The notes: generated by a model from the letters alone, not told the origin. A stretch of 64,000 nt of DNA from Candidatus Parcubacteria bacterium (GCA_026395685.1 JAPLYG010000016.1:65035-129034); one strand, 5' to 3'; numbered from the stretch's first letter, positions 27,215 to 55,150 are shown. A program made the numbers and translations.

Positions 27215-27369
27215 TTTTGTCCACACTAATCTAGACAAAGTAAATAGGCTGAGGGTTAAGGTAATGATGCTGGTAAGTGAATTAGGCAAAGTGAATAGTA
27301 AAAATTACCAATTACCTAACCCTTACATTTACCAGCATCCTAACACTAACACCATTCACCAACTTATAT
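27215..27369. repeat. Family-B intergenic imperfect palindrome (copy B1)
   Basis: The left arm is gagggttaaggtaatgatgctggtaagtgaattaggcaaagtgaatag. The right arm is ccaattacctaacccttacatttaccagcatcctaacactaacaccattcacc. It abuts the ATG of the 27370 gene. Confidence 0.6.
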
Positions 27370-27663
27370 ATGCCTGATATCAATCAAATAAGAGTCTCAA
27401 TCTCAGAAGCTGCACGACTTTTTGGCGTAGATGCCAAAACAATCCGCCGGGCAATCAAGACCCAGGAGATCCGCTATGTGGTTGTGCGTGGCCGCTATAA
27501 GCTTAACTTTGAAAGCCTGATCAAGTGGTCACAGCGCAAAACAACCGTACGCAATAAAAGCAATAATCAGGGCATTGGCCAGTATGTTGGCCAGTGGAAG
27601 ATCAGTAATAAGCTTTACTCACCCAATCCGCCTAAGGATACTGAATTAGAAAATAAAAAATAA
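27370..27663 (+). CDS. Small helix-turn-helix DNA-binding protein (excisionase/MerR-like HTH_17-type)
   Basis: 97 aa. The opening VSISEAARLFGVDAKTIRRAIKTQEIRYVVVRGRYK is a classic Xis-like winged HTH. Confidence 0.5.
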   Translation: MPDINQIRVSISEAARLFGVDAKTIRRAIKTQEIRYVVVRGRYKLNFESLIKWSQRKTTVRNKSNNQGIGQYVGQWKISNKLYSPNPPKDTELENKK

Positions 27664-27800
27664 TTGAAATAAATAATCAATACTCAATCATCAAACAATA
27701 TCAAATATCTAATAACAAAATTCTAAACTTGTTTGGTAATTTGATATTATAGTTTAGTAATTGTTTGATTATCCCGAAGGGATCCCTTTGGGATTGATGA
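27664..27800. repeat. Family-A intergenic palindromic element (copy A2)
   Basis: The left part is aaataatcaatactcaatcatcaaacaatatcaaat...ctaaac, the centre is gtttagtaatt, and the right part is attgtttgattatc...gattgatgattgatgtttgatgatt. Confidence 0.6.
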
Positions 27801-27821
27801 TTGATGTTTGATGATTAAAAA

Positions 27822-27862
27822 ATAACAAAACCCCGCGTCCTTTCGGAACACGGGGTCTTGTT
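27822..27862. terminator. Intrinsic terminator between convergent genes
   Basis: Hairpin aaaaccccgcgtcctttcggaacacggggtcttgttttg. Confidence 0.5.
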
Positions 27863-27876
27863 TTGTATCTAATTAG

Positions 27877-29046
27877 TTATGCACTTTTAATTTCCATCTG
27901 GGTAACAGTTTTCTGATTCTTAGAGCTTAAAACTGAATTATAGGCATCAATTGTCTTTTTAACAATGTTCTCCCAATTATATTCAATTTCAGATCGATAC
28001 TGTAATTTTTCACCCATTTCCTGAACAACTTCAGGATGGTTCAATAAATACTGCAATTTCTGGCTTAAATCCGTAATGCTTTTACTGATAAAAGTTAAGC
28101 CGATTTCAGAAACCGCTTCCCTGTTAGGCGCGATATCACTGACTAATACTCCTTTGCCATAGCTCATTGCTTCCAATAAAGCGATTGATAAGCCTTCAGC
28201 TTCTGAAGGCTGCACAAATAAATAGGCATTAGAATATAATTCAGCTAAAGCTGTACCGGTTTGGTTGCCGGTAAAAATGATATTAGGATTGTCACCAGCC
28301 AAAGATTTCAAATACTGCACATAATCTTCAGTAAAATTGGCATCGCCAACAATTACTAATTTTTTGTCAGTATTTTTCAAGATGGAATAAGCTCTGATTA
28401 AATAATGCAAGCCTTTATGGCGAATCAGCCTGGAAACGGCCAAAATATAGTCATTACCGACTAATCCCCATTTAGCAGTGATTATTTGAGGTTTAATAGC
28501 AGCTGGTTGGTTTACACCATTAGGAATATAATCCAATTCGCCATTGAATTCCTGGCTATGAACCTGGGACTGATATTGAGAAACAGCAATGCACTTATCA
28601 GACCATTTAACAGAAATGTAAGCGCCTAAGCCTAAAAATTTTCTAGCCCAAACACCCCACTTTTTATGTTTCCTGTCGTCAGAGTGAAAAGTAGAAATGA
28701 CTTTGGCAGATCTTTTAAATAATTTAGGAATCCATAACAAACTGGAAGGTCCGATTGCATGATAATGAATAATATCAGCATCACGTCTTAAGACATCCAA
28801 GCTGGCTAACAAAGTATGAGAGATTGCATCCAAATGCTTAGTTTTAATGCTGGGCAAATGGATTAATTTTACGCCCTTATATTCAGTTAAACCTTTAGGA
28901 GTAAAATAATTTCTGCAATACACAAAAACTTCGTGACCTTCTTTCACTAATCTGGTAGCTAATTCCTCAACGTGGCGTTCAACGCCACCGGAAATAGCCG
29001 GTATTCCTTTTTGTCCGATAAAATAAATCTTCATATTTTTATACAA
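27877..29046 (-). CDS. Glycosyltransferase family 4
   Basis: Shows MKIYFIGQKGIPAISGGVERHVEELATRL and EAEGLSIALLEAMSYGKGVLVSDI. Confidence 0.8.
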   Translation of the reverse strand: MYKNMKIYFIGQKGIPAISGGVERHVEELATRLVKEGHEVFVYCRNYFTPKGLTEYKGVKLIHLPSIKTKHLDAISHTLLASLDVLRRDADIIHYHAIGPSSLLWIPKLFKRSAKVISTFHSDDRKHKKWGVWARKFLGLGAYISVKWSDKCIAVSQYQSQVHSQEFNGELDYIPNGVNQPAAIKPQIITAKWGLVGNDYILAVSRLIRHKGLHYLIRAYSILKNTDKKLVIVGDANFTEDYVQYLKSLAGDNPNIIFTGNQTGTALAELYSNAYLFVQPSEAEGLSIALLEAMSYGKGVLVSDIAPNREAVSEIGLTFISKSITDLSQKLQYLLNHPEVVQEMGEKLQYRSEIEYNWENIVKKTIDAYNSVLSSKNQKTVTQMEIKSA

Positions 29047-29289
29047 TATTAGATGAATTAATCCCCAAAGTACTAGGAAATTAAGACATTGGGGATTTAA
29101 TATTTAATATTGTATATTAGCATAAATTTGCTTCTTTGTCAACTATTTATTCTTAATTTAAGTAGCAAATGGCTAATTTTAGCCTTTTAAATCAATAAAT
29201 AAGGCAAAAATCACCTCTTGGGATTAATTACCTTACTATAATCTTTCTCCTATTGTCAAGTTTATTTTTTATTATATTTTGGGCTATAT

Positions 29290-29540
29290 AGGCGCGGACT
29301 AATCACCGAATGAATTCGGTAATACCCGAACAATCACCTGCGGGGTAACCCCGAATTTATTCGGGGTTGTATGGGCGCGGACTGATCACCGAATGAATTC
29401 GGTGATACCCGGAGACTGCGCGTTTGCATGGAACAACTTCCGTGGGGTAACCCCGAATTTATTCGGGGTTGTATGGGCAAGGACGAATCACCGAATGAAT
29501 TCGGTGATACCCCAAAAATTCCCGCGGGGTTACCCCGAAA
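29290..29540. repeat. Second REP/BIME-like array, about 2.5 units, in inverted orientation relative to 18045-18330
   Basis: Alternating (a/g)atcaccgaatgaattcggt(g/a)ata and ggggtaaccccgaatttattcggggttgtatgggcgcggac. It is the reverse complement of the unit architecture at 18045-18330. Confidence 0.8.
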
Positions 29541-29603
29541 AAAAGCGTTTTAATTGTTAATATTTTATTTTGAAAACATTTACAAATAGCGTATAATTAA
29601 ACC

Positions 29604-30755
29604 ATGAAAACTTTACAAAAAATCTGCCTGGCCATTGTAAAAATAAAAATTTCCATTTGCTGGCAAATTGGGTGTTTTTTTATTAAACCCAAGGCTGCTG
29701 ATTTACAAAAATTATCAGCTGACGGTCAGTTTAAAAATATTCTGGTTTGCGAATTGAATTTTATCGGCGATGCTTTATTGATCACCCCCTGCCTGCGGCA
29801 GATCAAACAAAATTATCCGCAAAGTAAAATTACTGTTCTAACCGGATTAAAAGCCAGCCAACAACTTTTAACCAATAATCCCAACATTGACCATCTGCTA
29901 ACAGCAAAAAATCATTGGCAGATTTTTATCTTCAGCCTTAAGAATAGAAACAAATTTGATATTTTGCTTGATTTTAGCGCCAACTTTTATAAGGCCTTTT
30001 TGCTTACTTTATCCAATATCCCCTATCGCATCGGAACCAAACCAAAACAAAAAATCCTCCTTAAAAATCGCGACGGCTTTGGCTGGCTTTATACCCATAC
30101 AAAAAACTTTAGCAGCCAGACACACATTGCTGATTATTTTCTAAGCTTGCTTGAATTTTTAGGCAACAATATTCTGGATAATCATCTGGAGATTTATCTG
30201 GATGATAAAGAAAAAAAAGACAGCTTTAAGCTGCTGACAAAATATAATCTAAACGAGAATCAGTTTTTAGTCTTGCATCCCGGGGTAAATGACCAGGGCA
30301 AAGCCTGGAATATTAAAGCCTGGCAGGAACTGGCGCAAAAATTAGTCAGCCAATATAAACTTGTGTTTACCGGCTCAACCGAAGACCAAGATTTGATTGC
30401 TGAAATTTGTCAAGATTTAAAACCCGGACAAGCTCTTAATCTGGCGGGAAAATTAGAAATCAGGCAAACAGCCACCCTGATTTTCCGAGCGCAGGCTTTT
30501 ATTGGCGTTGATACAGGGCCATTACATATTGCAGTCAGCTTTAATAAACCGATTGTTGCTATTTTTAATACCACTCACCCGCAAAACTATTTGCCCAGCC
30601 GCAATAATATTGAAATTCTGAATACCCCGGAAAAATGCAAACAGCATTTTACTTTAAATTACATCAAAACCAAAAGACAGTATAAACAAAATGAATGTTC
30701 TCAAATAATCAAGCCGCAGCAAGTACTTGAGGCTTTGGAAAAGCTGGAAAAATAA
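29604..30755 (+). CDS. Glycosyltransferase family 9 (heptosyltransferase-like)
   Basis: Shows ILVCELNFIGDALLITPCLRQIKQNYPQSKITVL and GVDTGPLHIAVSFNKPIVAIF, which are characteristic GT9 blocks. Confidence 0.75.
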   Translation: MKTLQKICLAIVKIKISICWQIGCFFIKPKAADLQKLSADGQFKNILVCELNFIGDALLITPCLRQIKQNYPQSKITVLTGLKASQQLLTNNPNIDHLLTAKNHWQIFIFSLKNRNKFDILLDFSANFYKAFLLTLSNIPYRIGTKPKQKILLKNRDGFGWLYTHTKNFSSQTHIADYFLSLLEFLGNNILDNHLEIYLDDKEKKDSFKLLTKYNLNENQFLVLHPGVNDQGKAWNIKAWQELAQKLVSQYKLVFTGSTEDQDLIAEICQDLKPGQALNLAGKLEIRQTATLIFRAQAFIGVDTGPLHIAVSFNKPIVAIFNTTHPQNYLPSRNNIEILNTPEKCKQHFTLNYIKTKRQYKQNECSQIIKPQQVLEALEKLEK

Positions 30756-30866
30756 ATGATCTCTTATAATAGGATACCTACGGCAAAATAGCTGGCGGTA
30801 TTTATGTTACAGGCTACGACCGCGATAGCGGTTAATTAAAACTAACGAACCTAAACGTTTTTATCC

Positions 30867-30965
30867 CTCCCTGGGGGCTTGGGGGTGCGAACTAAGCGTC
30901 AAGTTCAAAGTTACGAACAAACCATCTGCACTAGCGCATTGAGCACCCCCAAAACTTTTTTGATT
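30867..30965 (+). ncRNA. Candidate structured small RNA / terminator-containing element (family C, copy 3)
   Basis: The stem cttgggggtgc...gcacccccaa encloses gaactaagcg / tacgaac / catctgcactagcgcattga. It is followed by aaaactttttttg and the AT hairpin ttactttttt-agttat-aaaaaagtaa (30966-30992). The stem changes are compensatory relative to copy 2. Confidence 0.4.
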
Positions 30966-30989
30966 ACTTTTTTAGTTATAAAAAAGTAA

Positions 30990-31040
30990 GATGCCGACCT
31001 ACGTCGGCCGAAGCCGACTTCGGTCGGCGCAGGCCGGAGG
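30990..31040. terminator. Pair of GC-rich hairpins between convergent genes
   Basis: The hairpins are gccgacctacgtcggc and gccgacttcggtcggc. They are strikingly GC-rich against the AT-rich background. Confidence 0.4.
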
Positions 31041-31229
31041 CAGAATTTATTAGATTTTCGTCTAAAGCTACTTTTTTTTCCTAAACTTTTTTATATATTT
31101 AATGTATTATAACTTGCTGATCCACAAGCTTCATTCTAAACACACACGCCTGCTACGCAGGAGAATTTTCAAGTAAAAACAAAGGCAACACAATCTTGTG
31201 CCGCCTATATTGTTATTTCATGTATCTTT

Positions 31230-32450
31230 TTATTTAAGTAATTGTTTATATATTTTAATAATCTCAGCAAGATGCTTTTGCGGATCGCAGTTTGTTTCCA
31301 CCCAACGGCGGCAATTTTCGCCAATTACTTTAAGTTCAGCATCATTATTATAAAGACTTTTAATTTTATCGGCTAAATCATAATCATCCCCGGGAACAAA
31401 AACCAATCCGGTTTTATTGTCTTTAACCAGCTCGGGAATGCCTCCCAAATCAGAACCGATCACCGGCTTACCAAGAGCAAAAGCCTCTAATATCGCCAGC
31501 GGATTATTTTCATACCAAAGCGAAGGGGCAATTACAATTTTTGACTGGCTGATCAAATCCATTAATTCCTGCCCTGATTTATAACCAATCATTTTTATAT
31601 TTTCCAGATTATGGTCTTTAAGATACTGCCTAATTTCAGCCTCAATCGGCCCAGTGCCTATAATGGTCAATTTTATCTCCGGCAAGCTTTTACAGGCCTC
31701 TAAAAGCGTAAAAATGCCCTTTTCCGGGCTCAAACGCCCGATATAGCATATTCCCTCCCCCAATTTATTCTGGGGCTTAAATCGCGTCAAATCAAAGGAA
31801 TAATAAAGCTGCTTTATTTTTTGTTCTGGCAAATGCCAGTCTTTGATTTTTTGGGCTAAAAATTTGCTGGGAGCAATAAATATCTTGACCTGGTTATAAC
31901 TTTTTAAAATTATTTTGTGTCCGTACATTTCCAGCATTGCCAAAAAGCTTAAACTGCCTGAATTTTTTAAACACCTGTATTTCCAGCAATTATAATATTT
32001 ATGGACCTTGCATCGTTCACAAACTTCGCCCTGAGTAAAAAGCTGATAATTAGGACAAATCGCCTTATAATCATGCAGTGTCCAGACAACCGGAATTTTA
32101 TGCTTTTTTAAAACTCCTAAAATTGAGGGGGTGAGCTGAAAATTAAAATTATGCAGATGAGCAATGTCAGGCTTTTCTTCCCTGATTAATTTGCCCAGTT
32201 TCTTTTTGGCTTCACAAGAATAAAGCAAATGCAGAGCTTTTTTCAGATCCTTAAACCAGCCTTCGCGTTTATCAAAATTTATATTTTTTATAAAATACCG
32301 GCTGTATTTGGAATTCCTGTTTTTTTCATCCTGCATGGAAAATTCAATAACTTCATGTCCAGCTTTTTTCAATAACTCGGACAAGGCAAAAAAATAGGTT
32401 TCGCTTCCGCCCTTGGGATAAAAAAATTTATTAATCTGGAGAATCTTCAT
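31230..32450 (-). CDS. Glycosyltransferase family 4
   Basis: Shows MKILQINKFFYPKGGSETYFFALSELLKKAGHEV and YENNPLAILEAFALGKPVIGSDLGGIPELV. Confidence 0.8.
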   Translation of the reverse strand: MKILQINKFFYPKGGSETYFFALSELLKKAGHEVIEFSMQDEKNRNSKYSRYFIKNINFDKREGWFKDLKKALHLLYSCEAKKKLGKLIREEKPDIAHLHNFNFQLTPSILGVLKKHKIPVVWTLHDYKAICPNYQLFTQGEVCERCKVHKYYNCWKYRCLKNSGSLSFLAMLEMYGHKIILKSYNQVKIFIAPSKFLAQKIKDWHLPEQKIKQLYYSFDLTRFKPQNKLGEGICYIGRLSPEKGIFTLLEACKSLPEIKLTIIGTGPIEAEIRQYLKDHNLENIKMIGYKSGQELMDLISQSKIVIAPSLWYENNPLAILEAFALGKPVIGSDLGGIPELVKDNKTGLVFVPGDDYDLADKIKSLYNNDAELKVIGENCRRWVETNCDPQKHLAEIIKIYKQLLK

Positions 32451-32476
32451 ATTTAAAAATTCAAATTAACTTTAAA

Positions 32477-33226: not shown

Positions 33227-33234
33227 TTAGTAAA

Positions 33235-34599: not shown

Positions 34600-34601
34600 A
34601 A

Positions 34602-35582: not shown

Positions 35583-35893
35583 AGTTTATTAGTCGTTCGT
35601 TATACAATTACGATAAATCGTTACGTTTTTCGTCCTACGATGGGCGTTACATTAAACGTTAAACGTCTGACGTAACGAACTTCGATGCCATTAAACGATT
35701 AAATTAATTATATCATATTTTCGCTAAATCTTCATTCAAAGATTCAATAGAAACAAATCATCCCGAACCTACAAGGTACGGGACGATATATTAATTGATG
35801 GCATAGTATTTAGGTAAAGAAATTAACGGATTCAAGTGCCAGTGCAATGTATTACTTTGCACTAGCTAGCATCCTAATCTTAACCCAGCCACT

Positions 35894-36679
35894 TTATTTC
35901 AAATGATCATGCATAGTTATAATTTTGGTGTTTTTTTGTTTGGCAGCATATTCAGCATCAAAACCAAAAGATTTGTCCTCAAGCAGGGTTGAATCCATAT
36001 TATTCCCCTGCTGGTCATTTTGAGTATATACTTTGTGAGGATGATAAGCTGTTTGCTGATATCTTTGCATTCTGCGGGAAGCGCGTAAAATCACATAATA
36101 ACTGCCGATTACCAAGCCGGCAATCAAAGCAACAATAAGATTTAAAGCAACATTGGGTCTGACCGGATATTTACTGATAAAAACATCATCAACTACTTTG
36201 ATTTCCACATCAGTACCGCCGCCATGATAATCTGAACCTTTATTAACCAAAACATAAGCAATCGTTTTAACTAATTGAGACGCGAGACCGCGATCAACAT
36301 CATAAACAGTAATTTCCAAAATACCTGATTCAGGGATAACATCAGCTTCTATATTTTTCTTCCAGGCCTTACGTCTTTCAGTTGGATCTGAAGGAAATTT
36401 AGAGGTAAGCTCGCTGTTTGTTTCCAAAACTTCATTATAAAAGACAGAAGTATAGATAATGCTTGCTAAATTCTTACCGATTCTTTCTGCTGATTTGGTG
36501 GCAGTATAAGCATCTAAATTTTGCTCCTGCTTTTGAATAATTAAAATTTTTGTAGAAGCAGAATACTGAAAAGGTGAAAATAAACTTACAACTAACGCAA
36601 TAACAATCGCCAAGCCAGTAAACAAAGCGATTAATTCCCAATTCTTGCTTAATATCTTAAAATATTGAACATTCTCCAT
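35894..36679 (-). CDS. Wzz/chain-length-determinant-like protein (two TM helices flanking a periplasmic domain)
   Basis: The N-terminus KNWELIALFTGLAIVIALVVSLFSPFQYSASTKILI resembles the Wzz N-terminal motif. A C-terminal TM (LIVALIAGLVIGSYYVIL) follows before an RRM-rich tail. Confidence 0.55.
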   Translation of the reverse strand: MENVQYFKILSKNWELIALFTGLAIVIALVVSLFSPFQYSASTKILIIQKQEQNLDAYTATKSAERIGKNLASIIYTSVFYNEVLETNSELTSKFPSDPTERRKAWKKNIEADVIPESGILEITVYDVDRGLASQLVKTIAYVLVNKGSDYHGGGTDVEIKVVDDVFISKYPVRPNVALNLIVALIAGLVIGSYYVILRASRRMQRYQQTAYHPHKVYTQNDQQGNNMDSTLLEDKSFGFDAEYAAKQKNTKIITMHDHLK

Positions 36680-40674: not shown

Positions 40675-40974
40675 AAATAAGGAAAACCGCCTTCATAAAT
40701 TAAAATAAATAAAAAGCGGTAACTGATAACAATTAAGATGTTTCATTGCTTATATTATATAAAATTAATGCCTTTTGGTCAATCAGCGTTTTAATCTTGA
40801 CAAAATAAGATAAAAGTGATAATTTATTATATTGAACCTTAAATTAATACCCACAGGGCCTCTAATTAAAAAAAATCTATTACCCCTTTCTTTCTTAATT
40901 TTTTAGGCTCTATGGGTATTAACTTGCGGTTGAATGAGGAAGGCAAGTTGCCTTCTTTCTTTATTTACTTTAAT

Positions 40975-41121
40975 TACAATGTTATTATTTAAGGTGTAAA
41001 GTGAATGGGTAAAGATGCTAGTAAGTGTTAAGTGCTTAGGTTATGTGTTTTTTAAGGACTTAACCCCAAACACCATTCACCTACCAGCCTCCTAACCTGA
41101 ACACTATTCACTATCTAATTT
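40975..41121. repeat. Family-B intergenic imperfect palindrome (copy B2)
   Basis: Reads gtgtaaagtgaatgggtaaagatgctagtaagtgttaagtgcttaggtt ... ccaaacaccattcacctaccagcctcctaacctgaacactattcac. It abuts the smpB start. Confidence 0.6.
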
Positions 41122-41580
41122 ATGCCCTCCCTAGCTATCAATAAAAAAGCCCGATTTGACTACGAAATACTGGAAACTCATGAAGCCGGTATTGTTTTGA
41201 GCGGACAAGAAGTCAAATCAGCTAAAGCCGGCCAAATAAGTTTAAACGGCGCTTATGTTGTAGTTGATAATAACCGCAATCTAAATTTACTGAATGCCTC
41301 TATAACGCCGTACAAAATGGCAGGCCCCTTGCCCAGCTATGATCCTGGCCGTACCCGCCGGCTGCTTTTGCACAAGAATGAAATCGATCATTTAGCAGGA
41401 AAAATCCAGCAGCAAGGGTTGACGCTGATACCCCTTTCATTGTATACTAAGCATAACAAAATTAAGGTTGAAATCGGACTTGGCCGGGGTAAAAAAAAGT
41501 ATGATAAGCGCGAAACGATCCGCAAAAGAGAAGATGACCGCCAAATCAGCCGTCTTTTGAAAATGAAAAATCACCAATAA
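41122..41580 (+). CDS. smpB: SsrA-binding protein SmpB
   Basis: Opens KKARFDYEILETHEAGIVLSGQEVKSAKAGQISLNGAYV and has the basic C-terminal tail typical of SmpB. Confidence 0.9.
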   Translation: MPSLAINKKARFDYEILETHEAGIVLSGQEVKSAKAGQISLNGAYVVVDNNRNLNLLNASITPYKMAGPLPSYDPGRTRRLLLHKNEIDHLAGKIQQQGLTLIPLSLYTKHNKIKVEIGLGRGKKKYDKRETIRKREDDRQISRLLKMKNHQ

Positions 41581-41700
41581 CACAATCATCAATCATCAAG
41601 CAAATTCTAAACCCAAATGACTAAATAACTAATTTGGTAATTAGAATTTCGGTAATTAAGTATTGTTTGGATATTGTTTATTGATTATTGGTTATTAAAC
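41581..41700. repeat. Family-A intergenic palindromic element (copy A3) between smpB and ssrA
   Basis: Reads cacaatcatcaatcatcaagcaaattctaaac ... tttggtaattag ... attgtttggatattgtttattgattattggttatta. Confidence 0.6.
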
Positions 41701-41703
41701 CAT

Positions 41704-42086
41704 GGGGATGATCGGACTCGATAGATCGATCTTTATCTAAGGCTGCAAGCCGAGCTGCTATCATGCTCGATAAACTGTTAGCCACTTTATAAGTGCAAAC
41801 AAATTTTTAAGCGGAGTTAAAGCAGCTTTTGCTTTTAACTTTGCTCCTGTTGCCGCTTAATCGCCGCAACCATCTGGACCTTTAACGCCTGATAAAAGGC
41901 TCCGGGTGTCAAAACATCAGGCTCGCCAAGTAAGGAGCGCCTTTGCCAGCTTGGCCAAAAAATTAAGGCATGATATAAGAATTTTGTCGGGATTAACATC
42001 TTATATTTAAATTTAACCCCGAACAAGCTTGTAGACGCCTGGCCGAAGACTTTCTAGACGCGGGTTCAATTCCCGCCATCTCCACA
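41704..42086 (+). ncRNA. ssrA: tmRNA (SsrA)
   Basis: The 5' end is ggggatgatcggactcgat. The 3' tRNA-like domain has gacgcgggttcaattcccgccatctcc plus a discriminator a; CCA is not encoded. The internal tag ORF ...GVKAAFAFNFAPVAA ends in gcc-gct-taa (AA-stop). It is adjacent to smpB. Confidence 0.8.
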
Positions 42087-42206
42087 TAAATTTTTACTTC
42101 GTAAAAATTTGGGTACTTAGTAGTTTGTACTTTGTATTTTGGGAAGAAGTAAAAATTTATCCTACACTACAAAATACACATACTCACACAAAAATAAAAA
42201 ATATGT

Positions 42207-42235
42207 TTGACTTCGAAAAATTAGATGTATATAAT
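42207..42235 (+). promoter_or_regulatory. Near-consensus sigma-70 promoter
   Basis: TTGACT at 42207-42212, a 17-nt spacer, then TATAAT at 42230-42235. It sits upstream of the short IVS-family ORF and of infC. Confidence 0.5.
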
Positions 42236-42252
42236 AAAGAGCTTCTATCAGT

Positions 42253-42468
42253 ATGGTAATAAATATTACTGAAGGTAGCGGAAAATTCTCTAAAGCTGAC
42301 AAACGAAATTTCTATACTATAGCTCGTGCTTCAACTTATGAATGTGTATCATTACTAGAAATTATTCTCGAAGAAGATCAAATCAGCCGCGAAGAGTATA
42401 ACGATTTTTATTCAAAATACGAAATTATTTCCAAAATGCTACTTGGCTTAATTAACAGCCAAAAATAA
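42253..42468 (+). CDS. Short four-helix-bundle protein (C-terminal half of the 23S rRNA IVS / Avd-like family)
   Basis: 71 aa. Shows INITEGSGKFSKADKRNFYTIARASTYECVSLLEII, matching the IVS-family core. An in-frame stop lies 6 codons upstream of the ATG, so the N-terminal half is absent. Confidence 0.5.
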   Translation: MVINITEGSGKFSKADKRNFYTIARASTYECVSLLEIILEEDQISREEYNDFYSKYEIISKMLLGLINSQK

Positions 42469-42491
42469 CTTTAATAATTAATTTTAAAACA

Positions 42492-43058
42492 TTGAAACGT
42501 ATCAAATTCGCCAGAAAACAATGGCAAAGACTGGCTCCGCCTCCGGAAATTTATCCGGTTAATGAAAAAATAAGATTCCCCCAACTAAGGGTTATTGATG
42601 AAAATAGCCAGATGTTAGGCGTTCTGCCAACGGTTGAAGCTCTGCAACTTGCCAAAGAACGTGAACTGGACCTGGTTGTTGTTTCTCCTAAAGCAGAGCC
42701 TCCAGTCGCAAAATTTATTAATTACAGTAGTTTCAAATACCAGAAAGAAAAAGAGGCTAGAAAACAAAAAGCACAGCAAAAAATCGGAGAAATGAAAGAA
42801 ATCCGCCTCTCGCCCAGAATTGGCAAGCATGATTTGGATATCCGGCTTAAGCAGGCTGAAAAATTTTTAAGACGCGGAGATAAAGTAACTGTTTCCATTT
42901 TCTTAAAAGGACGCGAAAAACAGCATGCTGACTTAGGACGGGAAATGCTGGAAACTTATATCAAGGAATTAAGCCAATTACTTGATATTAAGTTTGAACA
43001 GGAAATAAAACGAACCGGCGGCAGCTTTTCTGCCATTATTTTGGCAAATAAGCAATAA
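42492..43058 (+). CDS. infC: Translation initiation factor IF-3
   Basis: Shows LRVIDENSQMLGVLPTVEALQLAKERELDLVVVSPKAEPPVAKFINY and KEIRLSPRIGKHDLDIRLKQAEKFLRRGDKVTV. The track start at 42492 is TTG. The true start is probably a non-ATG codon (TTG or ATT/ATA near INEKIR), as is usual for infC. Confidence 0.8.
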   Translation: MKRIKFARKQWQRLAPPPEIYPVNEKIRFPQLRVIDENSQMLGVLPTVEALQLAKERELDLVVVSPKAEPPVAKFINYSSFKYQKEKEARKQKAQQKIGEMKEIRLSPRIGKHDLDIRLKQAEKFLRRGDKVTVSIFLKGREKQHADLGREMLETYIKELSQLLDIKFEQEIKRTGGSFSAIILANKQ

Positions 43059-43171
43059 CTCTTGACTTTTTATCAAGAAAAAGCTAAAATAACCTTAAAT
43101 TAGCTTGACGGCTAATTTTAAGTTTAAAAATTCTCATAATCTAACATTAAAAACCTAAAATCTATATCAAT

Positions 43172-43378
43172 ATGCCAAAAATGAAAACTCATCAATCCAT
43201 TGCCAAACGCTTTAAAATGACAAAAAAAGGCAAAATGTTAAAAAAGAAAGCAGGACAGAATCACTTCAACGCCCGCGAAAAAGGCAGTGTTACCAGGAAT
43301 AAAAGACGCATACAGAATACCAACGAAAGAATTGCCTCTCCCTTGAAGCATCTTATCCCCTATTCTACTAAATATTAA
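43172..43378 (+). CDS. rpmI: 50S ribosomal protein L35
   Basis: Opens MPKMKTHQSIAKRFKMTKKGKMLKKKAG. Confidence 0.9.
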   Translation: MPKMKTHQSIAKRFKMTKKGKMLKKKAGQNHFNAREKGSVTRNKRRIQNTNERIASPLKHLIPYSTKY

Positions 43379-43429
43379 TTTAAAGGCTTTAAAGACTTTT
43401 GACTTTAAACTTTATAACTAAACAAAGAT

Positions 43430-43774
43430 ATGTCCAGAGTAAAACGAGGCGTCATTCATTTAAAAAAAAGACGCACTATCAGAAAAGCAACTAAAGGCTA
43501 CATGTGGGGCCGTAAGAAGACCATCAGACTCGGCCATACTGCCATGCTCAAAGCCGGCAATTATGCCTTTGCTCACCGTCGCGATAAAAAAGGCGTTTTC
43601 CGCAAATTATGGAACACCAGAATCAATGCTGCGGTCAGAGAACAGGGTTTAAGCTATTCCAAATTCATTGATTTGCTCGCTAAGAAAAAAATTGAGCTTG
43701 ACCGCAAAGTCCTCGCAGACCTTGCCATGAATTACCCTCTAGTTTTTGCTAAAATCATTGAAGCAGTCAAATAA
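43430..43774 (+). CDS. rplT: 50S ribosomal protein L20
   Basis: Opens MSRVKRGVIHLKKRRTIRKATKGYMWGRKKTIR...AFAHRRDKK. Confidence 0.9.
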   Translation: MSRVKRGVIHLKKRRTIRKATKGYMWGRKKTIRLGHTAMLKAGNYAFAHRRDKKGVFRKLWNTRINAAVREQGLSYSKFIDLLAKKKIELDRKVLADLAMNYPLVFAKIIEAVK

Positions 43775-43779
43775 AAAAA

Positions 43780-43810
43780 ATTCTCCGTACCGCGGAGAAT
43801 TTTTTTTATT
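43780..43810 (+). terminator. Intrinsic terminator after rplT
   Basis: Hairpin attctccg-tac-cgcggagaat followed by a T9 run. Confidence 0.7.
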
Positions 43811-43814
43811 AGTG

Positions 43815-43935
43815 TTTTCGTGTGTAGGTTAAGATGCTGGAAAGTGCTAGGTGTAAAGGGAAAGTGTCAAAATGACACATCACCTTGACCTTAACACCTA
43901 CTAACATCCTTACCTATTCACTTTACCTTAACTAT
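43815..43935. repeat. Family-B intergenic imperfect palindrome (copy B3)
   Basis: Reads gtaggttaagatgctggaaagtgctaggtgtaaaggg ... ccttaacacctactaacatccttacctattcactttacc. Confidence 0.55.
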
Positions 43936-44583
43936 TTAATCAATCTTTATCAATTCAATACTATTAATAATAACGTCTTTTGTCGGATGGTCATTTTCAT
44001 TCACCTTAACTGCTTCAATCTTATCAACCACATCCATGCCCTCAACTACTGTGCCAAAATTCGTATGCTTGCCGTCCAGCCAGCTCGTGGCAGCCGCTGT
44101 AACGATAAAAAACTGAGAGCCATTGGAATCTGGACCGGAATTGGCCATGGCCAGGCTGCGACGAACTAATTTATAGCTATTGATTTCGTCTTTAAATTTA
44201 TAGCCCGGATCTCCTGTGCCGTCATTGCTCCAATCATCATCTTTACTATTGGGATCGCCACCCTGAATCATAAAATCAGGAATTACCCGATGGAACTTGG
44301 TATTATTATAGAATCCTTTTTTTGCCAAATTTAAAAAATTATTTACCGTTAAAGAAGCGTCTCCATTATAGAACTTAACTTTAATATCGCCAAAATTTGT
44401 TTTTAAAATTGCGCAGTTATACTGACTTAACAAATCTTCCAGACCCAATTCCTTATACGCCTGATTTAGTTCCTCCTGTTTTTTATCTGCCATATTATTG
44501 ACATTAGCCTTAAAATTTTGATTTTGGGCTTGGCAGCCGGCTATTAGAACAGCTACAATTAAAATTAAAAAAATTCTTTTCAT
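43936..44583 (-). CDS. ppiB: Peptidyl-prolyl cis-trans isomerase, cyclophilin type, lipoprotein
   Basis: The lipobox is LIAGCQA. Cyclophilin blocks are [33 protein letters not shown] and [19 protein letters not shown]. Confidence 0.85.
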
Positions 44584-44589
44584 ATATTT

Positions 44590-44713
44590 AAAAGTTGTTA
44601 GTATCTGGGTTAAGGTAAAGATGCTAGTAATTGCAAAGTATTAAGATCAAGTAAAAATACATTGCCCTAGCACCATCTACTTACCAGCTTCTCTACCCAA
44701 AGACTATTCACGA
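44590..44713. repeat. Family-B intergenic imperfect palindrome (copy B4)
   Basis: Reads gggttaaggtaaagatgctagtaattgcaaagt ... cctagcaccatctacttaccagcttctctacccaaagactattcac. Confidence 0.55.
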
Positions 44714-45727
44714 TTATTTTAGATCCTCCCCCTTTACAAACGTATCCAGCCATTCCTGGTTCACAACATTAACAGCATCCCAGCTCCAGCCTTTGGCTTT
44801 AAATATTGTTTCACTAGGAATGTATTGCTGAATTAATTCGTGCAAATAATAGACCCTCGGACTATTAGCCAACTTTACCAGTTTGGGATAGGTAAAAATT
44901 GCCCGAGCCGGCCCATCAGCATGTTTGGTGACAAAACTATAATCATGAATGGCGTTCATCAGCAAATCATAACCATAGCGATGATTAGGGCCATCTTTGG
45001 TATCGCCGGAATCATTAGTGATAAATTCCTTTGTCGCATCATCGTAGCCGATGATAACCAACATGTGATAAGATGTTCCTCTGGGCGCCGGCACAAAAGG
45101 GATATTCTTATTTTGCAAATCAAACCCATACACAGGCACGATTACCGGCCGGTTCTGCTGCAATTCTTTTTTTATCTGAGAAATTGTCGGCTTTTCAATA
45201 ATGGTCGCATTATAGATCGTGTTATCATTAATAAGCTTGGCTGTCCTGACAGCGTCAGAATTGGCATTGCCTCCCCATAATTTATTTTGCGCGTTAAATA
45301 ACTCAGTCATCATTTTTTCCGCTTCCAGGACAGAAACAGTGCTTCTGCCATAATAATATTTATCAACCATAGTTATACACGCCTCTTCGCAGGCGTTTTT
45401 CCACGGACCAGTCCAGGAATTATCAGGTGATTCATTAATATAAGGAACAGACAAAAGCACCTTGCTGACATTCACAACAGGAGTCACTACTGGCTGATTA
45501 ATATTTATCGGCTTATTTACATTAACATTCTGAGTTACCGCATTATTTACGGATTTTACTGTTGCCGCATTTGTTGAATTACCACTGGAATTAGCCTCCA
45601 AAGGCGCGTCGTCCAAAATTGCAGACAACAAAAAATAACCTCCCACCAAAACGACAAGCACAATTATAATAAATTTAAATATATTTTTCATATAATTAAT
45701 AATAACATAAAAAAATGAAAATGGCAA
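44714..45727 (-). CDS. Membrane-anchored protein with papain-like (C39-like) cysteine peptidase domain, putative
   Basis: There is an N-terminal TM helix. The Cys context is WKNACEEACITM. The His and Asp contexts are SYHMLVIIGYDD and NDSGD, reminiscent of C39_2 / BtrH-like domains. Confidence 0.4.
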   Translation of the reverse strand: MPFSFFYVIINYMKNIFKFIIIVLVVLVGGYFLLSAILDDAPLEANSSGNSTNAATVKSVNNAVTQNVNVNKPININQPVVTPVVNVSKVLLSVPYINESPDNSWTGPWKNACEEACITMVDKYYYGRSTVSVLEAEKMMTELFNAQNKLWGGNANSDAVRTAKLINDNTIYNATIIEKPTISQIKKELQQNRPVIVPVYGFDLQNKNIPFVPAPRGTSYHMLVIIGYDDATKEFITNDSGDTKDGPNHRYGYDLLMNAIHDYSFVTKHADGPARAIFTYPKLVKLANSPRVYYLHELIQQYIPSETIFKAKGWSWDAVNVVNQEWLDTFVKGEDLK

Positions 45728-51009: not shown

Positions 51010-51591
51010 ATGGTACAAATTCTTGGTCTGAGGCATGGGGAAAAAGACGGCGATAAACTCACCATTAGCGGTGAAAATCAGGTCCTGGCAGCTGGCCATC
51101 GTTTATTATCTCAGGGATTTTGTTTTGACCGGCTTATTCATTCCGGAGCCAACCGCACCAGGCGATCATTAGAAATTCTGATTACTGCCATGAAGATCTT
51201 TCATTTGCCTTTGGAAGAAAATGAAAATTTCAGTTATAACGTTGGCAAAAATTTTCATGCCAGCCGTGAAGAATTCGCAGCTGAAATGGAAAAAATCCAG
51301 CAAGCCGGCGGTACCTTGGATATAGCGCTTAGGCTGAGCAAATATGCTCAGGAAGTACGCAGATATATTTATGGGTCAATCATTGACCTGGGCCGGGAGA
51401 TGGAAAGTAAAAGCCAAAAAAGCGCTCTGGTCTTTTCCCACTCCCCGTTGATTGTGACTGCCGCTCCTGTTCCCGAAGAAACTCCCTATGGACTGTATGA
51501 ATGCGACGGAATTCTCTACACTTATGAGCGCGGTAAAATCAAAAAATCGGAAATCATCAGAGCGCCGATACGAGGTAAAACTCTCTGGTAA
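51010..51591 (+). CDS. Histidine phosphatase superfamily (phosphoglycerate-mutase-like) protein
   Basis: The N-terminal RHG motif is ILGLRHGEKDGD. A second His context is VFSHSPLIV. Confidence 0.55.
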   Translation: MVQILGLRHGEKDGDKLTISGENQVLAAGHRLLSQGFCFDRLIHSGANRTRRSLEILITAMKIFHLPLEENENFSYNVGKNFHASREEFAAEMEKIQQAGGTLDIALRLSKYAQEVRRYIYGSIIDLGREMESKSQKSALVFSHSPLIVTAAPVPEETPYGLYECDGILYTYERGKIKKSEIIRAPIRGKTLW

Positions 51592-51595
51592 ACCA

Positions 51596-51682
51596 CTCAA
51601 GGCCGCCCGCTTCTCGGGAGGCCTTTTTTATTTCTCAGGCAAAAACGCCCTCCGAAGCCTTTGCGAAGGAGGGGCGTTTTTG
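51596..51682 (+). terminator. Two consecutive intrinsic terminators
   Basis: First hairpin: ggccgcccgcttctcgggaggcc-tttttta. Second hairpin: acgccctccgaagcctttgcgaaggaggggcg-ttttt. Confidence 0.65.
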
Positions 51683-51795
51683 CCCAGGACTCCCCTTGCC
51701 AAGGTAATAAAATATTGCTATAATATTCTCACAAGGTCTAAAAACCTTATTTTTAATTTATAAATATTCCTAAGTTTTAACTTTTGAATTAATTT

Positions 51796-51870
51796 GGAGT
51801 GGTAGCTCAGTTTGGTTAGAGCGCCGCCCTGTCACGGCGGAGGTCGCGGGTTCGAGCCCCGTCCACTCCG
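51796..51870 (+). tRNA. tRNA-Asp (GTC)
   Basis: Cloverleaf as follows. Acceptor ggagtgg / ccactcc + g. D-arm gctc-agtttggtt-agagc. Anticodon arm ccgcc-ctGTCac-ggcgg. T-arm gcggg-ttcgagc-cccgt. CCA is not encoded. Confidence 0.9.
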
Positions 51871-52580
51871 AACCAGAAGCACGCAATATCATTTTATTGC
51901 GTGTTTTCGTTTACCCCGTACCGAGCTTCGCTCTGGTACGGGGTTTGGTGAGGCTTCGGTTCGGAGTAGGCCAGTGCCGAACGAACTAGGATATTAAATT
52001 TAAAAATAAACGCCACTCCGAACCAGAAGCACGCAATATCATTTTATTGCGTGTTTTCGTTTACCCCGTACCGAGCTTCGCTCTGGTACGGGGTTTGGTG
52101 AGGCTTCGGTTCGGAGTAGGCCAGTGCCGAACGAACATAGTGAGTTCTGGTTCTGGCCACTCCGTTATTCTTTATCTCTGAGCTCCCTGCTATAATATGT
52201 ATATAATAATTATTATTATAAAATTTATGTACTTTGTTTATTACTTACAAAGCAAAATAAGGCCAACCCAATTTTACGTTGGCTATACAACAAAGTTAGA
52301 TATAAGGATTAGCGACCATAATAAGGGTTTATCCGCTTCAACAAAACCTTATCGACCTTGGGACTTAATTTTTTACGAAGCATATAAAGATAAAAAAGAT
52401 GCCAAAAGGCGTGAAAAGTACTTAAAGACGACCAAAGGACGTAAAGGCTTAAAGTTAATGTTGAGATATTCAATTCCAAAGTAAACGCCAATCCGAACCA
52501 GAAGCACGCAATATCATTTTATTGCGTGTTTTCGTTTACCCCGTACCGAGCTTCGCTCTGGTACGGGGTTTGGCGAGGCT
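51863..52580. repeat. Three copies of a ~125-bp hairpin-rich repeat that begins with the tRNA-Asp 3' end (copies at 51863-51993, 52011-52140, 52488-52580)
   Basis: The unit is ccactccgaaccagaagcacgcaatatcattttattgcgtgttttcgtttaccccgtaccgagcttcgctctggtacggggtttggtgaggcttcggttcggagtaggccagtgccgaacgaac. Copy 1 overlaps the tRNA 3' acceptor strand. Copies 2 and 3 carry cgccac/atccgaacc. Confidence 0.8.
52227..52484 (+). CDS. GIY-YIG nuclease-family protein (YhbQ/UPF0213-like)
   Basis: Reads FYVGYTTKLDIRISDHNKGLSASTKPYRPWDLIFYEAYKDKKDAKRREKYLKTTKGRKGLK, matching the GIY-YIG core. The track start at 52197 is in an A/T run, so ATG 52227 is preferred. Confidence 0.65.
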   Translation: MYFVYYLQSKIRPTQFYVGYTTKLDIRISDHNKGLSASTKPYRPWDLIFYEAYKDKKDAKRREKYLKTTKGRKGLKLMLRYSIPK

Positions 52581-52717
52581 AATGTTGAAATATTCAATAA
52601 TAAAATAAGTCCACTCTGCTCCAACAAAAAGACAATCATTATCGGGTGTTTTCTTGTCTACAACAATTTAAAAAACCCCATTGATGTTATATCTCCGGGG
52701 TTGGTTGTGTCGGGGGA

Positions 52718-53023
52718 TTAGATCCCAAATCGGAGGTCTGAACCCATCTCCTCCAGCTCCTTATTTAAGCTGGGGATGTCGGTCTGCTTCCTCCATTTTT
52801 TCCAGTACGCTCGCTGCTCTTTTTCGGACATCATAAAGAAGTCTGATGGTTTGAGGCAGAAATTTTCTTCCCGCTCTTTGCGTTCCGCGGCTGCCGCTCG
52901 CCTCACATAGTGTTCGATCAACCGAAGCAAGGACACCACGCCCACTGCCTTTAAATAGACCTTTTGCTGGGCAAGTGTCATCTTACTGAACTCAAAAATT
53001 TTCAGAAACGATCCCTTCGCCAT
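52718..53023 (-). CDS. Hypothetical protein in GC-richer islet
   Basis: 101 aa, basic, coiled-coil-like. The local GC is visibly higher than the surrounding genome. Confidence 0.4.
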   Translation of the reverse strand: MAKGSFLKIFEFSKMTLAQQKVYLKAVGVVSLLRLIEHYVRRAAAAERKEREENFCLKPSDFFMMSEKEQRAYWKKWRKQTDIPSLNKELEEMGSDLRFGI

Positions 53024-53180
53024 GGTATCCTCCTTTTTGAAGTGAGAGTAATTACTTTAGTATAAATACTAAAGCAATATTACATTATAGAATAATTATT
53101 TAATTTTGTCAAGCCAATACCGGACTAACAAAAAAAGCCCACTGCGATGCAGGGGCTTGGAATCTCATTTTCTTTAAATC

Positions 53181-53441
53181 TTATTTTGTGATCACGAATT
53201 TTTCTCGGCTTTGGGGCCAATCCTCAATAAAGGCAAAGAATTCTGACAACCGCAGATTAAAGATCTGCGCAAAGACAATCAGCTCGCTGATCTGCTGGGG
53301 CGAACCATACAGCTCCAGCATATAGATATCGTGCTCAGTCTTCTTCAGCTTTTCTGCCAGTTCAGCCATTGACCAGTTCTGCTGTTTCCTGAGGAATTTG
53401 ATGACCTGACGGACTTTCTTATTGTATTCGCAGAGCTCCAT
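53181..53441 (-). CDS. XRE-family (Cro/C1-type) helix-turn-helix transcriptional regulator
   Basis: Shows QNWSMAELAEKLKKTEHDIYMLELYGSPQQISELIVFAQIFNLRLSEFF. It is GC-richer than the flanks. Confidence 0.55.
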   Translation of the reverse strand: MELCEYNKKVRQVIKFLRKQQNWSMAELAEKLKKTEHDIYMLELYGSPQQISELIVFAQIFNLRLSEFFAFIEDWPQSREKFVITK

Positions 53442-53555
53442 CGCTGTCTCCCTTCTTTCATTGAAACTTTGATACCAGCCTTTTAAATTATCACATTATG
53501 TTTAAAATGTCAATTGCCGCAAAAAGCACCCGATCTCTCAGGTGCCACCCTATTA

Positions 53556-53700
53556 ATCACCAAGCTTCAATAACCAATATTCAAACAAATTTTAAATTCT
53601 AATACCAAATTACTAAAAAAAATTAGGGTTTTGGAATTAGTTATTTATTATTGTTTGATGCTTGATTCTTGGTTATTGATTATTCATTCAGCATCTTAAT
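53556..53700. repeat. Family-A intergenic palindromic element (copy A4), right arm overlapping the last codons of pgi
   Basis: Reads caataaccaatattcaaacaaattttaaattctaataccaaattactaaaaaaaattagggttttggaattagttatttattattgtttgatgcttgattcttggttattgattatt. Confidence 0.6.
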
Positions 53701-54978
53701 CATCAGATTCTTGGAATCTTCCACCCCTGGCTGATTAAAAACATCAATGCCTAAAAGTTCTCCCAGATATACCGTGGCCAGTTCAAAAAACTGAAATAAC
53801 TGTCCCAAATAATATTCATTCATTTCCGGTAAAATCAAAGTCGCATTTGCCCGATGATTTTTCATTAAAGAATTAGCCACTGCCAGCTGTTCAATTTTTA
53901 AAAGCTGGTCAAAACTTTTTCCAGCCAGAAATTCCAAACCAAAATTCTTATATAACGGCAGTTTGAAATCAACTACCGGCTTTTCCGCGCGGATAAAAGT
54001 AAAAATCTTATCATTGGCGCCTTCATTATATAACTGCAGCTGAGAATGCTGATCCTTGGGTCCGGCTGAGGCAATAGGAGTAATACCAATGGAAACCAAC
54101 TTCCCTTTTAAATCATACTTTTTACCCAAACTCTCAGCCAAAAGCTGGCGATACCAGAAAGAAAACGAATTCAAAGCTTCCAAATAAGGCATTAAAACCG
54201 CAATATTTTGTTTTCTCTTTTTATAGCCTAAATAGTGCAGAGCAGCATAAATAAACGGTAAATTTTCCCGCCAATTATCATTCTTTGCCATTTTATCCAT
54301 TTCTCGCGCGCCACTTAATAACTTTTTAATATCTAAGCCAAGCCACGCTGCCGGCAATAAACCATTGACTGATAAGACTGAAAATCTACCGCCGCCGGGA
54401 TAATGAGCCAGCAAAGCATATCCTTCTTTTTTGCATATTTCCAACAGTTTCCCGCTTTTTTCATTAGTTGTGATTATAAAATGATCTTTATGTCTATTTA
54501 AACCAACTGCCTTTATGACCTTATCACGCAAATAAATAAAATTTGCCAGAGTTTCCAAGGTCTCCCCTGACTTTGAGACCACATAAAATAATGTTTTTTT
54601 AAGGGATATTTTTGCCAGTAGATTATTCAAAGAATTGGGATCAGTAGTATCTCCAATAAAAAATAAACGGTTATTGGGCATAACTAAGGCCCGGGCTAAA
54701 GCTTTGGCTCCCAAGTCTGAACCGCCGATACCGACTACTACCAAAGCATCGAATTTACCCTGCAGATTCTTCGCTATTTTTTCAATTATATCCGCACTAA
54801 TCAAATCATAGGGCAATTTTCTGAAACTAATTTCAGGTTCAGCTTCCTTCTTTGCCAACTTAGCATTAATCTTTTTCAAATTCTTGCCTAAAGCAACCAG
54901 TTCAGCCTGTTTAAATCCAAAACTAGCGACCTTAGCAGCGGACATGTTTGTGTAATTATATTTTATATTTTGTGACAT
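53680..54978 (-). CDS. pgi: Glucose-6-phosphate isomerase (bifunctional PGI/PMI-type short form)
   Basis: Shows VVGIGGSDLGAKALARAL, the SIS motif, and SKSGETLETL...NEKSGK. Confidence 0.8.
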   Translation of the reverse strand: MSQNIKYNYTNMSAAKVASFGFKQAELVALGKNLKKINAKLAKKEAEPEISFRKLPYDLISADIIEKIAKNLQGKFDALVVVGIGGSDLGAKALARALVMPNNRLFFIGDTTDPNSLNNLLAKISLKKTLFYVVSKSGETLETLANFIYLRDKVIKAVGLNRHKDHFIITTNEKSGKLLEICKKEGYALLAHYPGGGRFSVLSVNGLLPAAWLGLDIKKLLSGAREMDKMAKNDNWRENLPFIYAALHYLGYKKRKQNIAVLMPYLEALNSFSFWYRQLLAESLGKKYDLKGKLVSIGITPIASAGPKDQHSQLQLYNEGANDKIFTFIRAEKPVVDFKLPLYKNFGLEFLAGKSFDQLLKIEQLAVANSLMKNHRANATLILPEMNEYYLGQLFQFFELATVYLGELLGIDVFNQPGVEDSKNLMIKMLNE

Positions 54979-54984
54979 AGAAAT

Positions 54985-55150
54985 ATTAGTTAAAGGTGTT
55001 TAGGTTAGGAGGCTGGTAAATTATGGTGTATAGTGCTTAGGTTAAGAGACTGCTAAGTGCCTAGTGTTGAGATAAAGTGCTTTATCTTACCTTACCAAAC
55101 CACCCTTCACTTACAGCGCCTTTGCCCATTTACTATTCACTGCGTGACTA
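54985..55150. repeat. Family-B intergenic imperfect palindrome (copy B5) in divergent promoter region
   Basis: Reads ggtgtttaggttaggaggctggtaaattatggtgtatagtgcttaggttaagagactgctaagtg ... ccttaccaaaccacccttcacttacagcgcctttgcccatttactattcac. Confidence 0.55.

Follow-up and report, generated by a model that had tools for sequence, protein, structure and literature searches.

Some intergenic spacers in a small bacterial genome are filled by similar long hairpins, and the question that they raise is whether these hairpins are regulatory signals or copies of a dispersed repeat. The locus is a 64,000-nt stretch of Candidatus Parcubacteria DNA (GCA_026395685.1 JAPLYG010000016.1:65035-129034), which we call the window and within which copies were counted, and the element is family B, an inverted repeat of ~125-135 bp that an earlier note had described from five copies. 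Family B is confirmed as a real recurrent family: all five copies are present, within ~10-25 bp of where they had been placed, and an independent repeat search of the window (D11) put all five together as one family. The copies derive from a palindromic master sequence, lie only in intergenic spacers, are common to at least three related organisms, and are absent from the same spacers in other relatives. We hold with moderate confidence that family B is a dispersed, noncoding, imperfect-palindrome repeat of a Parcubacteria lineage near Candidatus Buchananbacteria, the counterpart in the candidate phyla radiation (CPR) of repeats of the ERIC, Correia, REPIN, or miniature inverted-repeat transposable element (MITE) type.

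A covariance model (CM) built from the five window copies, R1, recovers them at 108-131 bits with E-values of 1e-22 or lower. Each copy was folded on either strand (z-scores below), and separate arm-wise shuffles kept the segregation of G and C between the arms; the Pfam scan that gave the gene contexts took in all 51 open reading frames (ORFs) of the window. The copies, all six intergenic, are listed here together with a promoter predicted beside the first.

27240-27369, no strand assigned: copy 1, 108 bits, fold z -3.8 (+) and -5.0 (-), in the divergent spacer between an extracytoplasmic function (ECF)-type sigma factor gene (26327-26893, -) and an HTH_17 gene (27370-27663, +) (Pfam)
27170-27199, + strand: predicted sigma-70-like promoter upstream of copy 1 (promoter scan)
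40985-41121, no strand assigned: copy 2, 131 bits, fold z -1.6 (+) and -4.4 (-), between the terminator of a conserved leader or small RNA (40936-40958, terminator scan) and the smpB ATG (41122)
43805-43938, no strand assigned: copy 3, 110 bits, fold z -4.2 (+) and -4.9 (-), from the bidirectional terminator after rplT (43770-43810) to the ppiB stop codon (43936-43938), between convergent gene ends
44594-44721, no strand assigned: copy 4, 108 bits, fold z -1.6 (+) and -3.6 (-), the whole 130-bp spacer from the stop of a Peptidase_C39-like gene (44714) to the ppiB start (44583), both on the - strand
54995-55150 (model match 55017-55150), no strand assigned: copy 5, 107.7 bits, fold z +0.6 (+) and -1.5 (-), in the divergent spacer between the pgi start (54978, -) and ORF 55232 (+)
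35791-35909, no strand assigned: degenerate sixth copy, 29.6 bits, E 3.6e-4, fold z -2.8 (-), in the spacer bounded by the stop of a Wzz-like gene (35894) and the start of a radical-SAM gene (35582), next to a different element made of 'acgtt' words (35620-35699)

The copies share words that shuffled sequence does not yield. With three or fewer mismatches, the core 20-mer GGTAAAGATGCTGGTAAGTG finds four copies on the + strand through the purine-rich arm and copy 4 through the opposite arm, compared with 0 matches in 100 shuffles; the complementary word CACTTACCAGCATCCTAAC has 6 matches (0.03 expected), and ACTATTCAC has 4 (0.39 expected). Pairwise local alignment scores between the five copies run from 26 to 76. 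The controls were 84 other intergenic 130-mers from the window (mean 16.8, 99th percentile 24) and copies shuffled arm-wise (mean 18.1, 99th percentile 27). The earlier note had been prepared to give up the family if its copies aligned no better than shuffled or intergenic controls; with scores of 26-76 against these controls, that objection fails.

Further copies exist outside the window, which the earlier note had made a second test of the family. Syntenic comparison loci, numbered L here, were retrieved via SmpB, AckA, and PurM homologues. The window SmpB is 100% identical to a protein of a 'Candidatus Parcubacteria bacterium' metagenome-assembled genome, which places the source in the CPR/Patescibacteria, and the next relatives, at 77-85% identity, include Candidatus Buchananbacteria. 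R1 scored candidates from a metagenome scan, and 2 of the 73 matches were real by the model, neither of them among the sequences used for R1. One (L066, identical to L106; ENA ERZ27247916; 100.3 bits) begins in the final codons of a metallo-beta-lactamase-fold gene and reaches to within a few nucleotides of the ackA ATG, and the other (L035, identical to L109; 98.3 bits) has the purL intrinsic terminator on one side and the purM TTGACA promoter and Shine-Dalgarno leader on the other. Both are ~80% identical to copy 2, the window copy nearest to those of other organisms (blastn: 81% to L035 and 79.5% to L066), in loci otherwise without homology to the window. These independent copies reach CM E-values of ~1e-20, and blastn gives 7e-24 to a different metagenome. 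In L107 (AckA 88% identity), the site upstream of ackA is likewise occupied, by a diverged copy (28.9 bits; hairpin z -3.0). A scan of the GTDB genomes with GGTWAWGATGCTRGWAAKTG gave 24 single matches, about the number expected by chance from a hand estimate, and none with a second match; all but two fell in unrelated taxa, and the three loci read, including both from Saccharibacteria, were without element-like surroundings. The source species is apparently not represented in that scan. Two patterns gave no real family B match in viral contigs, and copy 2 had no blastn match in 5,426 Escherichia coli genomes.

Every one of the five copies folds into a single long bulged hairpin, as the earlier note had predicted from their imperfect inverted repeats. 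Whole copies fold better than arm-wise shuffles retaining the G/C segregation (z -2.1 to -5.8), and therefore the hairpin is not a by-product of composition. The entire element is an inverted repeat and holds no ORF. Its most conserved part is a core of ~19 bp in each arm, GGTWAGGAnGCTGGTARGTG / CACTTACCAGCATCTTTACC, with a majority-base frequency of 0.88; the ends outside the core, of the GTGAATAG and CTATTCAC types, stand at 0.78, and the ~50 nt inside it are more variable (0.71) yet mostly pair. Identity between copies within the window is 52-65%.

The composition of the arms is strongly segregated, with 40% G and 4% C in the 5′ arm and 33% C and 6% G in the 3′ arm. Since the 5′ arm is nearly free of C and the 3′ arm nearly free of G, every G-C pair has its G on the 5′ arm. 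The arms first described as purine-rich and pyrimidine-rich are thus opposed and skewed, but they are better put as G-rich and C-free against C-rich and G-free. The 'strand asymmetry' that had been read into them does not hold, because the element is a palindrome and the segregation is a symmetric property, the same on both strands.

The separation of family B from a second set of hairpins, family A, stands: the words are different and the arm polarity is opposite, with the C/A-rich arm of family A coming first and the G/T-rich arm after it. Family A hairpins lie at 10577-10705, 27664-27820, 41581-41703, 53554-53679, 60024-60155, and 63944-63999 in the window and at 10449-10576 and 7738-7826 in L026, and often fill whole spacers. 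The spacer between smpB and the transfer-messenger RNA (tmRNA) gene contains a family A hairpin in L026 as well as in the window, and this copy therefore appears to be orthologous.

Family B stems are AT-rich, and neither the sequence of the copies nor the terminator scans has a U-tract (T-run) after them. We rejected intrinsic terminator function because there is no U-tract and the terminator scan gives no site from the long stem; the only sites that it places inside an element are two at the loop tip of copy 3, on the - strand (stems 43889-43866 and 43878-43864). Consensus scans gave no convincing promoter within the element. Rfam 15 had no family B match, either at gathering thresholds across the whole window or by E-value across 40675-45000, which takes in copies 2-4, and returned only tmRNA, tRNA, and noise.

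Folded as RNA, 5 of 5 window copies give better z-scores on the - strand, the copies outside the window likewise fold better on the strand of their genes, and the modeled strand has 29 G·U pairs compared with 12 A·C juxtapositions. On the - strand, the keto (G+T) fraction is 0.511 in the elements versus 0.510 in the other intergenic DNA of the window, and the GC skew is +0.079 versus +0.069. We therefore rejected the G·U excess as evidence for an RNA, since it equals the background intergenic strand skew. The strand difference in folding being background skew, no functional explanation is required, and strand-biased mutation of the ordinary kind is sufficient to account for the preference. The window itself has a low GC content (35-45%), a GC skew that is negative throughout on the + strand, and 41 of its 51 ORFs on the - strand. 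Covariation across seven copies, in which 85.5% of cells were paired, was not significant (score 0.179 versus 0.163 in shuffles; 122 of 500 shuffles equal or higher). The arms pair because their ancestor was a palindrome, and selection has not demonstrably preserved this pairing. A single orientation shared by all copies was rejected as unreliable, since copy 2 aligns better to copies 3 and 5 when flipped; only copy 2, L066, and L035 are clearly co-oriented.

Four of the five copies had been placed directly 5′ of a start codon. The gene contexts are as described (HTH_17, smpB, ppiB, and pgi, from Pfam), as is the position of copy 3 between the convergent ends of rplT and ppiB, but the element shows no specific association with start codons. 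In copies 1 and 2 an ATG comes 10-12 nt after the element end ..CTATTCAC, but in copy 4 this same end is 2 nt from a stop codon. The element is ~6-20 nt before an ATG in copies 4, 5, and L066; copy 3 adjoins a stop codon, and the L109 copy, between an intrinsic terminator and a TTGACA promoter, is outside any obvious transcript. Elements adjoin start codons because they fill whole spacers, and this heterogeneous context, beside starts, beside stops, and between terminator and promoter, argues for a dispersed repeat. By position, the copies inside transcripts are copy 4, L106, and L107 (between co-directional genes), copy 1 (downstream of the predicted promoter), and copy 2 (downstream of the leader terminator). 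Given that promoter, copy 1 is probably in the 5′ untranslated region of the HTH_17 gene. Copy 5, the weakest hairpin of the five, has an additional partial arm at 54995-55022, AATTTACCAGCCTCCTAAC on the - strand.

The leader beside copy 2 is a conserved structured leader or small RNA that follows a TTGACA promoter upstream of smpB (window 40826-40972, +; L101:2102-2250, L025:9743-9890, L026:9697-9849, L103:9721-9877, and L105:9741-9892). Its stem has 26 pairs, three of them with compensatory changes, and the 34-nt loop that the stem closes, AAAAAAATCTATTACCCCTTTCTTTCTTAATTTT, is the same in all six genomes except for one position in L105. The 3′ half of the downstream terminator (CCTTCTTTCTTT) repeats the loop motif, which suggests that it may alternatively pair with GGAAGG. 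This leader had no Rfam match in the whole-window and 40675-45000 scans.

The same spacers in relatives are variously filled or empty. At the site of copy 3, the convergent rplT-ppiB spacer has only the terminator in L025, L026, and L103. Upstream of ppiB, where the window has copy 4, the spacer is 17 bp long in L103, holds an unrelated hairpin of 'cgataac' words in L026 (z -4.4 / -5.3), and is a composite of other repeats in L025. Upstream of smpB, at the site of copy 2, the spacer contains a different G-arm/C-arm hairpin in L101 (85% SmpB identity; z -5.2 / -7.0), a short B-like remnant in L025, an element of 'acgtt' words in L105, the 'cgataac' type in L026, and no hairpin in L103. The ackA-upstream spacer holds family B in L106 and L107 and 'acgtt' in L108, which together with L105 represents one genome, GCA_026395755.1, and the purL-purM spacer holds family B in L109 and AT-rich 'taaaat' filler in L111. 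Thus, the sites of copies 3 and 4 are both empty in L103, and that of copy 3 also in L025 and L026, at 77-81% SmpB identity. Because such empty orthologous sites exist, the family B elements are dispensable.

Spacers are also shared between unrelated families. All three 'cgataac' copies in the 20-kb L026 locus lie in spacers that hold family B in the window, an overlap with a chance of ~0.03-0.05 as calculated by hand from 4 B-occupied spacers among the ~9-10 of at least 60 bp in the shared block. Some spacers have several unrelated elements: 35583-35893 ('acgtt' element and degenerate B), the spacer of copy 5 with its extra arm, and the L025 composite upstream of ppiB. The genome-specific hairpins of short words, of the types 'acgtt/cgtaac' and 'cgataac/cgaaaat' (window 35620-35699; L105:2038-2139, 9909-9974; L108:181-248, 2275-2359, 8822-8878; L026:3744-3864, 9878-9981, 13909-14024), share spacers with family B of the window or of L106.

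If family B is a dispersed repeat, it would have spread by insertion or recombination into permissive spacers, after stops or terminators and before starts or promoters, and different hairpin families would build up in these spacers in different genomes. A compact genome would offer few such spacers for a repeat to spread into and persist in. A copy within a transcript would form a bulged hairpin of ~50 bp without a U-tract, whose effect on the mRNA, as an exonuclease barrier or as a double-stranded RNase III substrate, is probably incidental or secondarily co-opted. REP, ERIC, and Correia stems can stall exonucleases or be cut by RNase III. By analogy, exonuclease stalling or RNase III cleavage is likely a side effect here, and we infer that family B is not a dedicated regulatory signal.

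Among known repeats, the ERIC/IRU elements of enterobacteria are reportedly imperfect palindromes of ~127 bp, a description credited to Sharples and Lloyd in 1990 and to Hulton and colleagues in 1991. Family B is like them in its size class, in being one long imperfect palindrome, in its strictly intergenic position, often in transcripts by coding ends, in the moderate divergence of its copies, in having no defined transposase or target duplication, and in its variable presence at orthologous sites. It differs in that there is no sequence similarity (blastn, 5,426 E. coli genomes), in belonging to another phylum, and in its G/C-segregated arms. Correia elements (CREE/NEMIS) of Neisseria are inverted repeats of 100-155 bp that lie near gene starts and, once transcribed, form hairpins open to RNase III cleavage; in size, inverted repetition, and location family B resembles them. 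Their 26-bp terminal repeats, TA target duplication, and IHF site had no counterpart in the family B copies and flanks read. As in generic bacterial MITEs, the elements are small, noncoding, inverted-repeat, and dispersed (5-6 copies in 64 kb plus those in other organisms), with filled and empty orthologous sites; the points of difference are that no consistent target-site duplication was seen in the AT-rich flanks read and that no parent insertion sequence with matching ends was identified in the 64 kb.

The alternative that survives best, although we consider it unlikely, is a selected cis-acting RNA hairpin that acts as 'operon punctuation'. Its stem would protect upstream mRNA from 3′ exonucleases or downstream mRNA from 5′ decay, or RNase III would cut it to uncouple cistrons, and its sequence would turn over in concert in each genome. 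Copy 4, L106, and L107 fill whole co-directional spacers without a promoter or terminator, the central stem of 14-15 consecutive pairs suffices for RNase III, and pairing persists in most copies even in the less conserved inner part. All copies also fold better on the majority-gene strand, but this preference is the background skew, and for copies 1 and 2 the better-folding strand is antisense to the adjacent gene. The idea is kept alive because unrelated families share spacers, related genomes carrying a different long hairpin in the same places. It is weakened because the L103 sites are empty, with no hairpin at all at three of these spacers, because covariation is lacking, and because the L109 copy has a terminator on one side and a promoter on the other; copy 5, too, is barely stable.

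A bolder form of this idea, which we regard as a speculation with low odds, is that Buchananbacteria-like Parcubacteria keep a 'punctuation' hairpin with one G-only and one C-only arm at defined spacers (upstream of smpB, ppiB, and ackA, and between the Wzz and radical-SAM genes), while the family that fills them (B, 'cgataac', 'acgtt', or the L101 type) is replaced genome by genome through concerted evolution or through a RAYT-related single-strand transposition that targets hairpins. If hairpins are indeed wanted there and not just tolerated, this would be a new mode of repeat-host co-evolution in ultra-small genomes.

It is improbable that family B is a REPIN-like population mobilized as single-stranded hairpins by a Y1 (RAYT or IS200-type) transposase of the same genome. 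The window does encode a bona fide REP-associated tyrosine transposase (RAYT), the sole transposase-like gene among its 51 ORFs, with repeats of its own.

17493-18017, - strand: RAYT gene, 174 aa, NCBIfam NF047646.1 at 92.3 bits (cut-off 80), Pfam Y1_Tnp
18051-18338: RAYT-side repeats (D2/D5/D6) upstream of the gene, three tandem 102-bp units with two GC-stem palindromes each, GGTATCACCGAATTTATTCGGTGATCC and AACCCCGAATGAATTCGGGGTT
29259-29512: inverted second cluster of the RAYT-side repeat family

One such palindrome lies in frame within the RAYT coding sequence (17784-17815). The gene and its repeats are a canonical REP/BIME-RAYT arrangement, as described in PMC3337134 and PMC5581495, in a Parcubacteria genome. 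PMC3337134 describes REPINs as doublets of ~90-110 bp that form hairpins, their ends being conserved and their spacer varying yet still able to pair. Family B resembles them in forming a hairpin doublet: the whole element folds as a hairpin in single-stranded nucleic acid (z -2.1 to -5.8), a conserved core (0.88) flanks a more variable pairing inner part (0.71), the families are genome-specific, as in REPIN-RAYT pairs, and a RAYT is in the genome (PMC3116915, PMC3337134). However, the family B arms, with 4% C or 6% G, are C-free or G-free and hence are not short palindromes like REPs but pair only with each other, the element is ~130 rather than ~90-110 bp long, and copy orientation is ambiguous by sequence. 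The RAYT is flanked, and even interrupted, by the GC-stem palindrome family (17784-18338), with no family B copy nearby, and no second RAYT is visible in the window. We rejected a link of family B to this RAYT since the flanking repeats belong to another family, and we did not file family B as a REPIN because it is not the REP family of the window and its arms are not palindromes.

A DNA-level role, in which arrays of GGTAA/TTACC and GTGAAT/ATTCAC words bind a regulator or nucleoid protein or a cruciform insulates divergent promoters, seems very improbable to us. The arms are made of short recurring words, three copies are in divergent promoter regions, and copy 1 is next to an ECF sigma factor gene and an HTH gene; however, the words differ in number and spacing from copy to copy, some copies are found where gene ends converge or within operon spacers, the corresponding sites of relatives carry unrelated words, and no binding protein is assignable. 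Chance similarity of low-complexity AT-rich intergenic DNA, which the 52-65% identity within the window and the 2 of 10 pairs near the 99th percentile of controls might suggest, is already refuted by the shuffles (0 of 100 match GGTAAAGATGCTGGTAAGTG), the CM (E 1e-22 or lower in the window and ~1e-20 elsewhere), blastn (E 7e-24), and the pairwise scores, and is given next to no weight.

Several points weigh against a dispersed repeat, the reading that we favor. Neither a target-site duplication nor sharp termini could be defined: the flanks of seven copies and the comparison of L109 (filled) with L111 gave no consistent direct repeat, the flanks being AT-rich and the L111 site holding other sequence. 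No cognate transposase was found in the 64-kb window, whose sole transposase (RAYT, 17493-18017) has a different repeat family on its flanks, and the relatives compared document no recent insertion polymorphism; a firm call of 'mobile element' would need a target duplication, a cognate transposase, and such a polymorphism. The copy number rests on the 64-kb window rather than on a genome-wide count. The empty sites occur only in fairly distant relatives (77-81% SmpB identity), so loss cannot be told from gain. Finally, unrelated hairpin families hold exactly the spacers that family B takes up ('cgataac' in 3 of 3 cases in L026, and 'acgtt' upstream of smpB and ackA in GCA_026395755.1), and it could equally be that a hairpin is wanted there. 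Two features are left unexplained: the segregation of G and C between the arms, and the occupation of common spacers by unrelated families.

The window and its relatives contain other repeats and small elements. A GIY-YIG gene of 95 aa (52197-52484) has three copies of a 124-bp repeat on its flanks (51863-51986, 52013-52136, and 52488-52611), the first of which begins within the 3′ end of tRNA-Asp; in relatives, a GIY-YIG gene is located in the tmRNA-infC spacer instead. In the window this spacer (42088-42491) has another hairpin, with a G/T arm and then a C/A arm (~42110-42190), and, by eye, a putative frameshifted small ORF. A PD-(D/E)XK / GxxExxY-family gene (6461-6913, TIGR04256) adjoins 'TACTAAT'-word repeats (D7; region 6427-6913) that recur at 13039-13106. 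An 86-bp GC-rich repeat with 73% identity (19916-20001 and 30864-30949; TCCCT..GGGGGC..CTAAGCG..GCACTAGCGCATTGAG..CCCC) occupies two long spacers, each near one REP cluster, and could be a structured RNA candidate. A 99-bp intergenic stretch at 184-273 is 76% identical to L101:816-913 at a nonsyntenic position and represents another shared repeat family.

No description of such repeat families in CPR/Patescibacteria was found in the literature searched, and family B adds a new member to a well-known class of bacterial repeats. Reduced genomes of ~1 Mb, too, carry several hairpin repeat families and at least one REP-RAYT system. R1 allows family B to be annotated, so that its copies are not mistaken for regulatory RNAs or small RNA genes, and the copies are possible strain markers for metagenomic population studies. 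Should unrelated families share spacers because of function or targeting, and not because the spacers are permissive, this would be relevant to operon punctuation in regulator-poor organisms.

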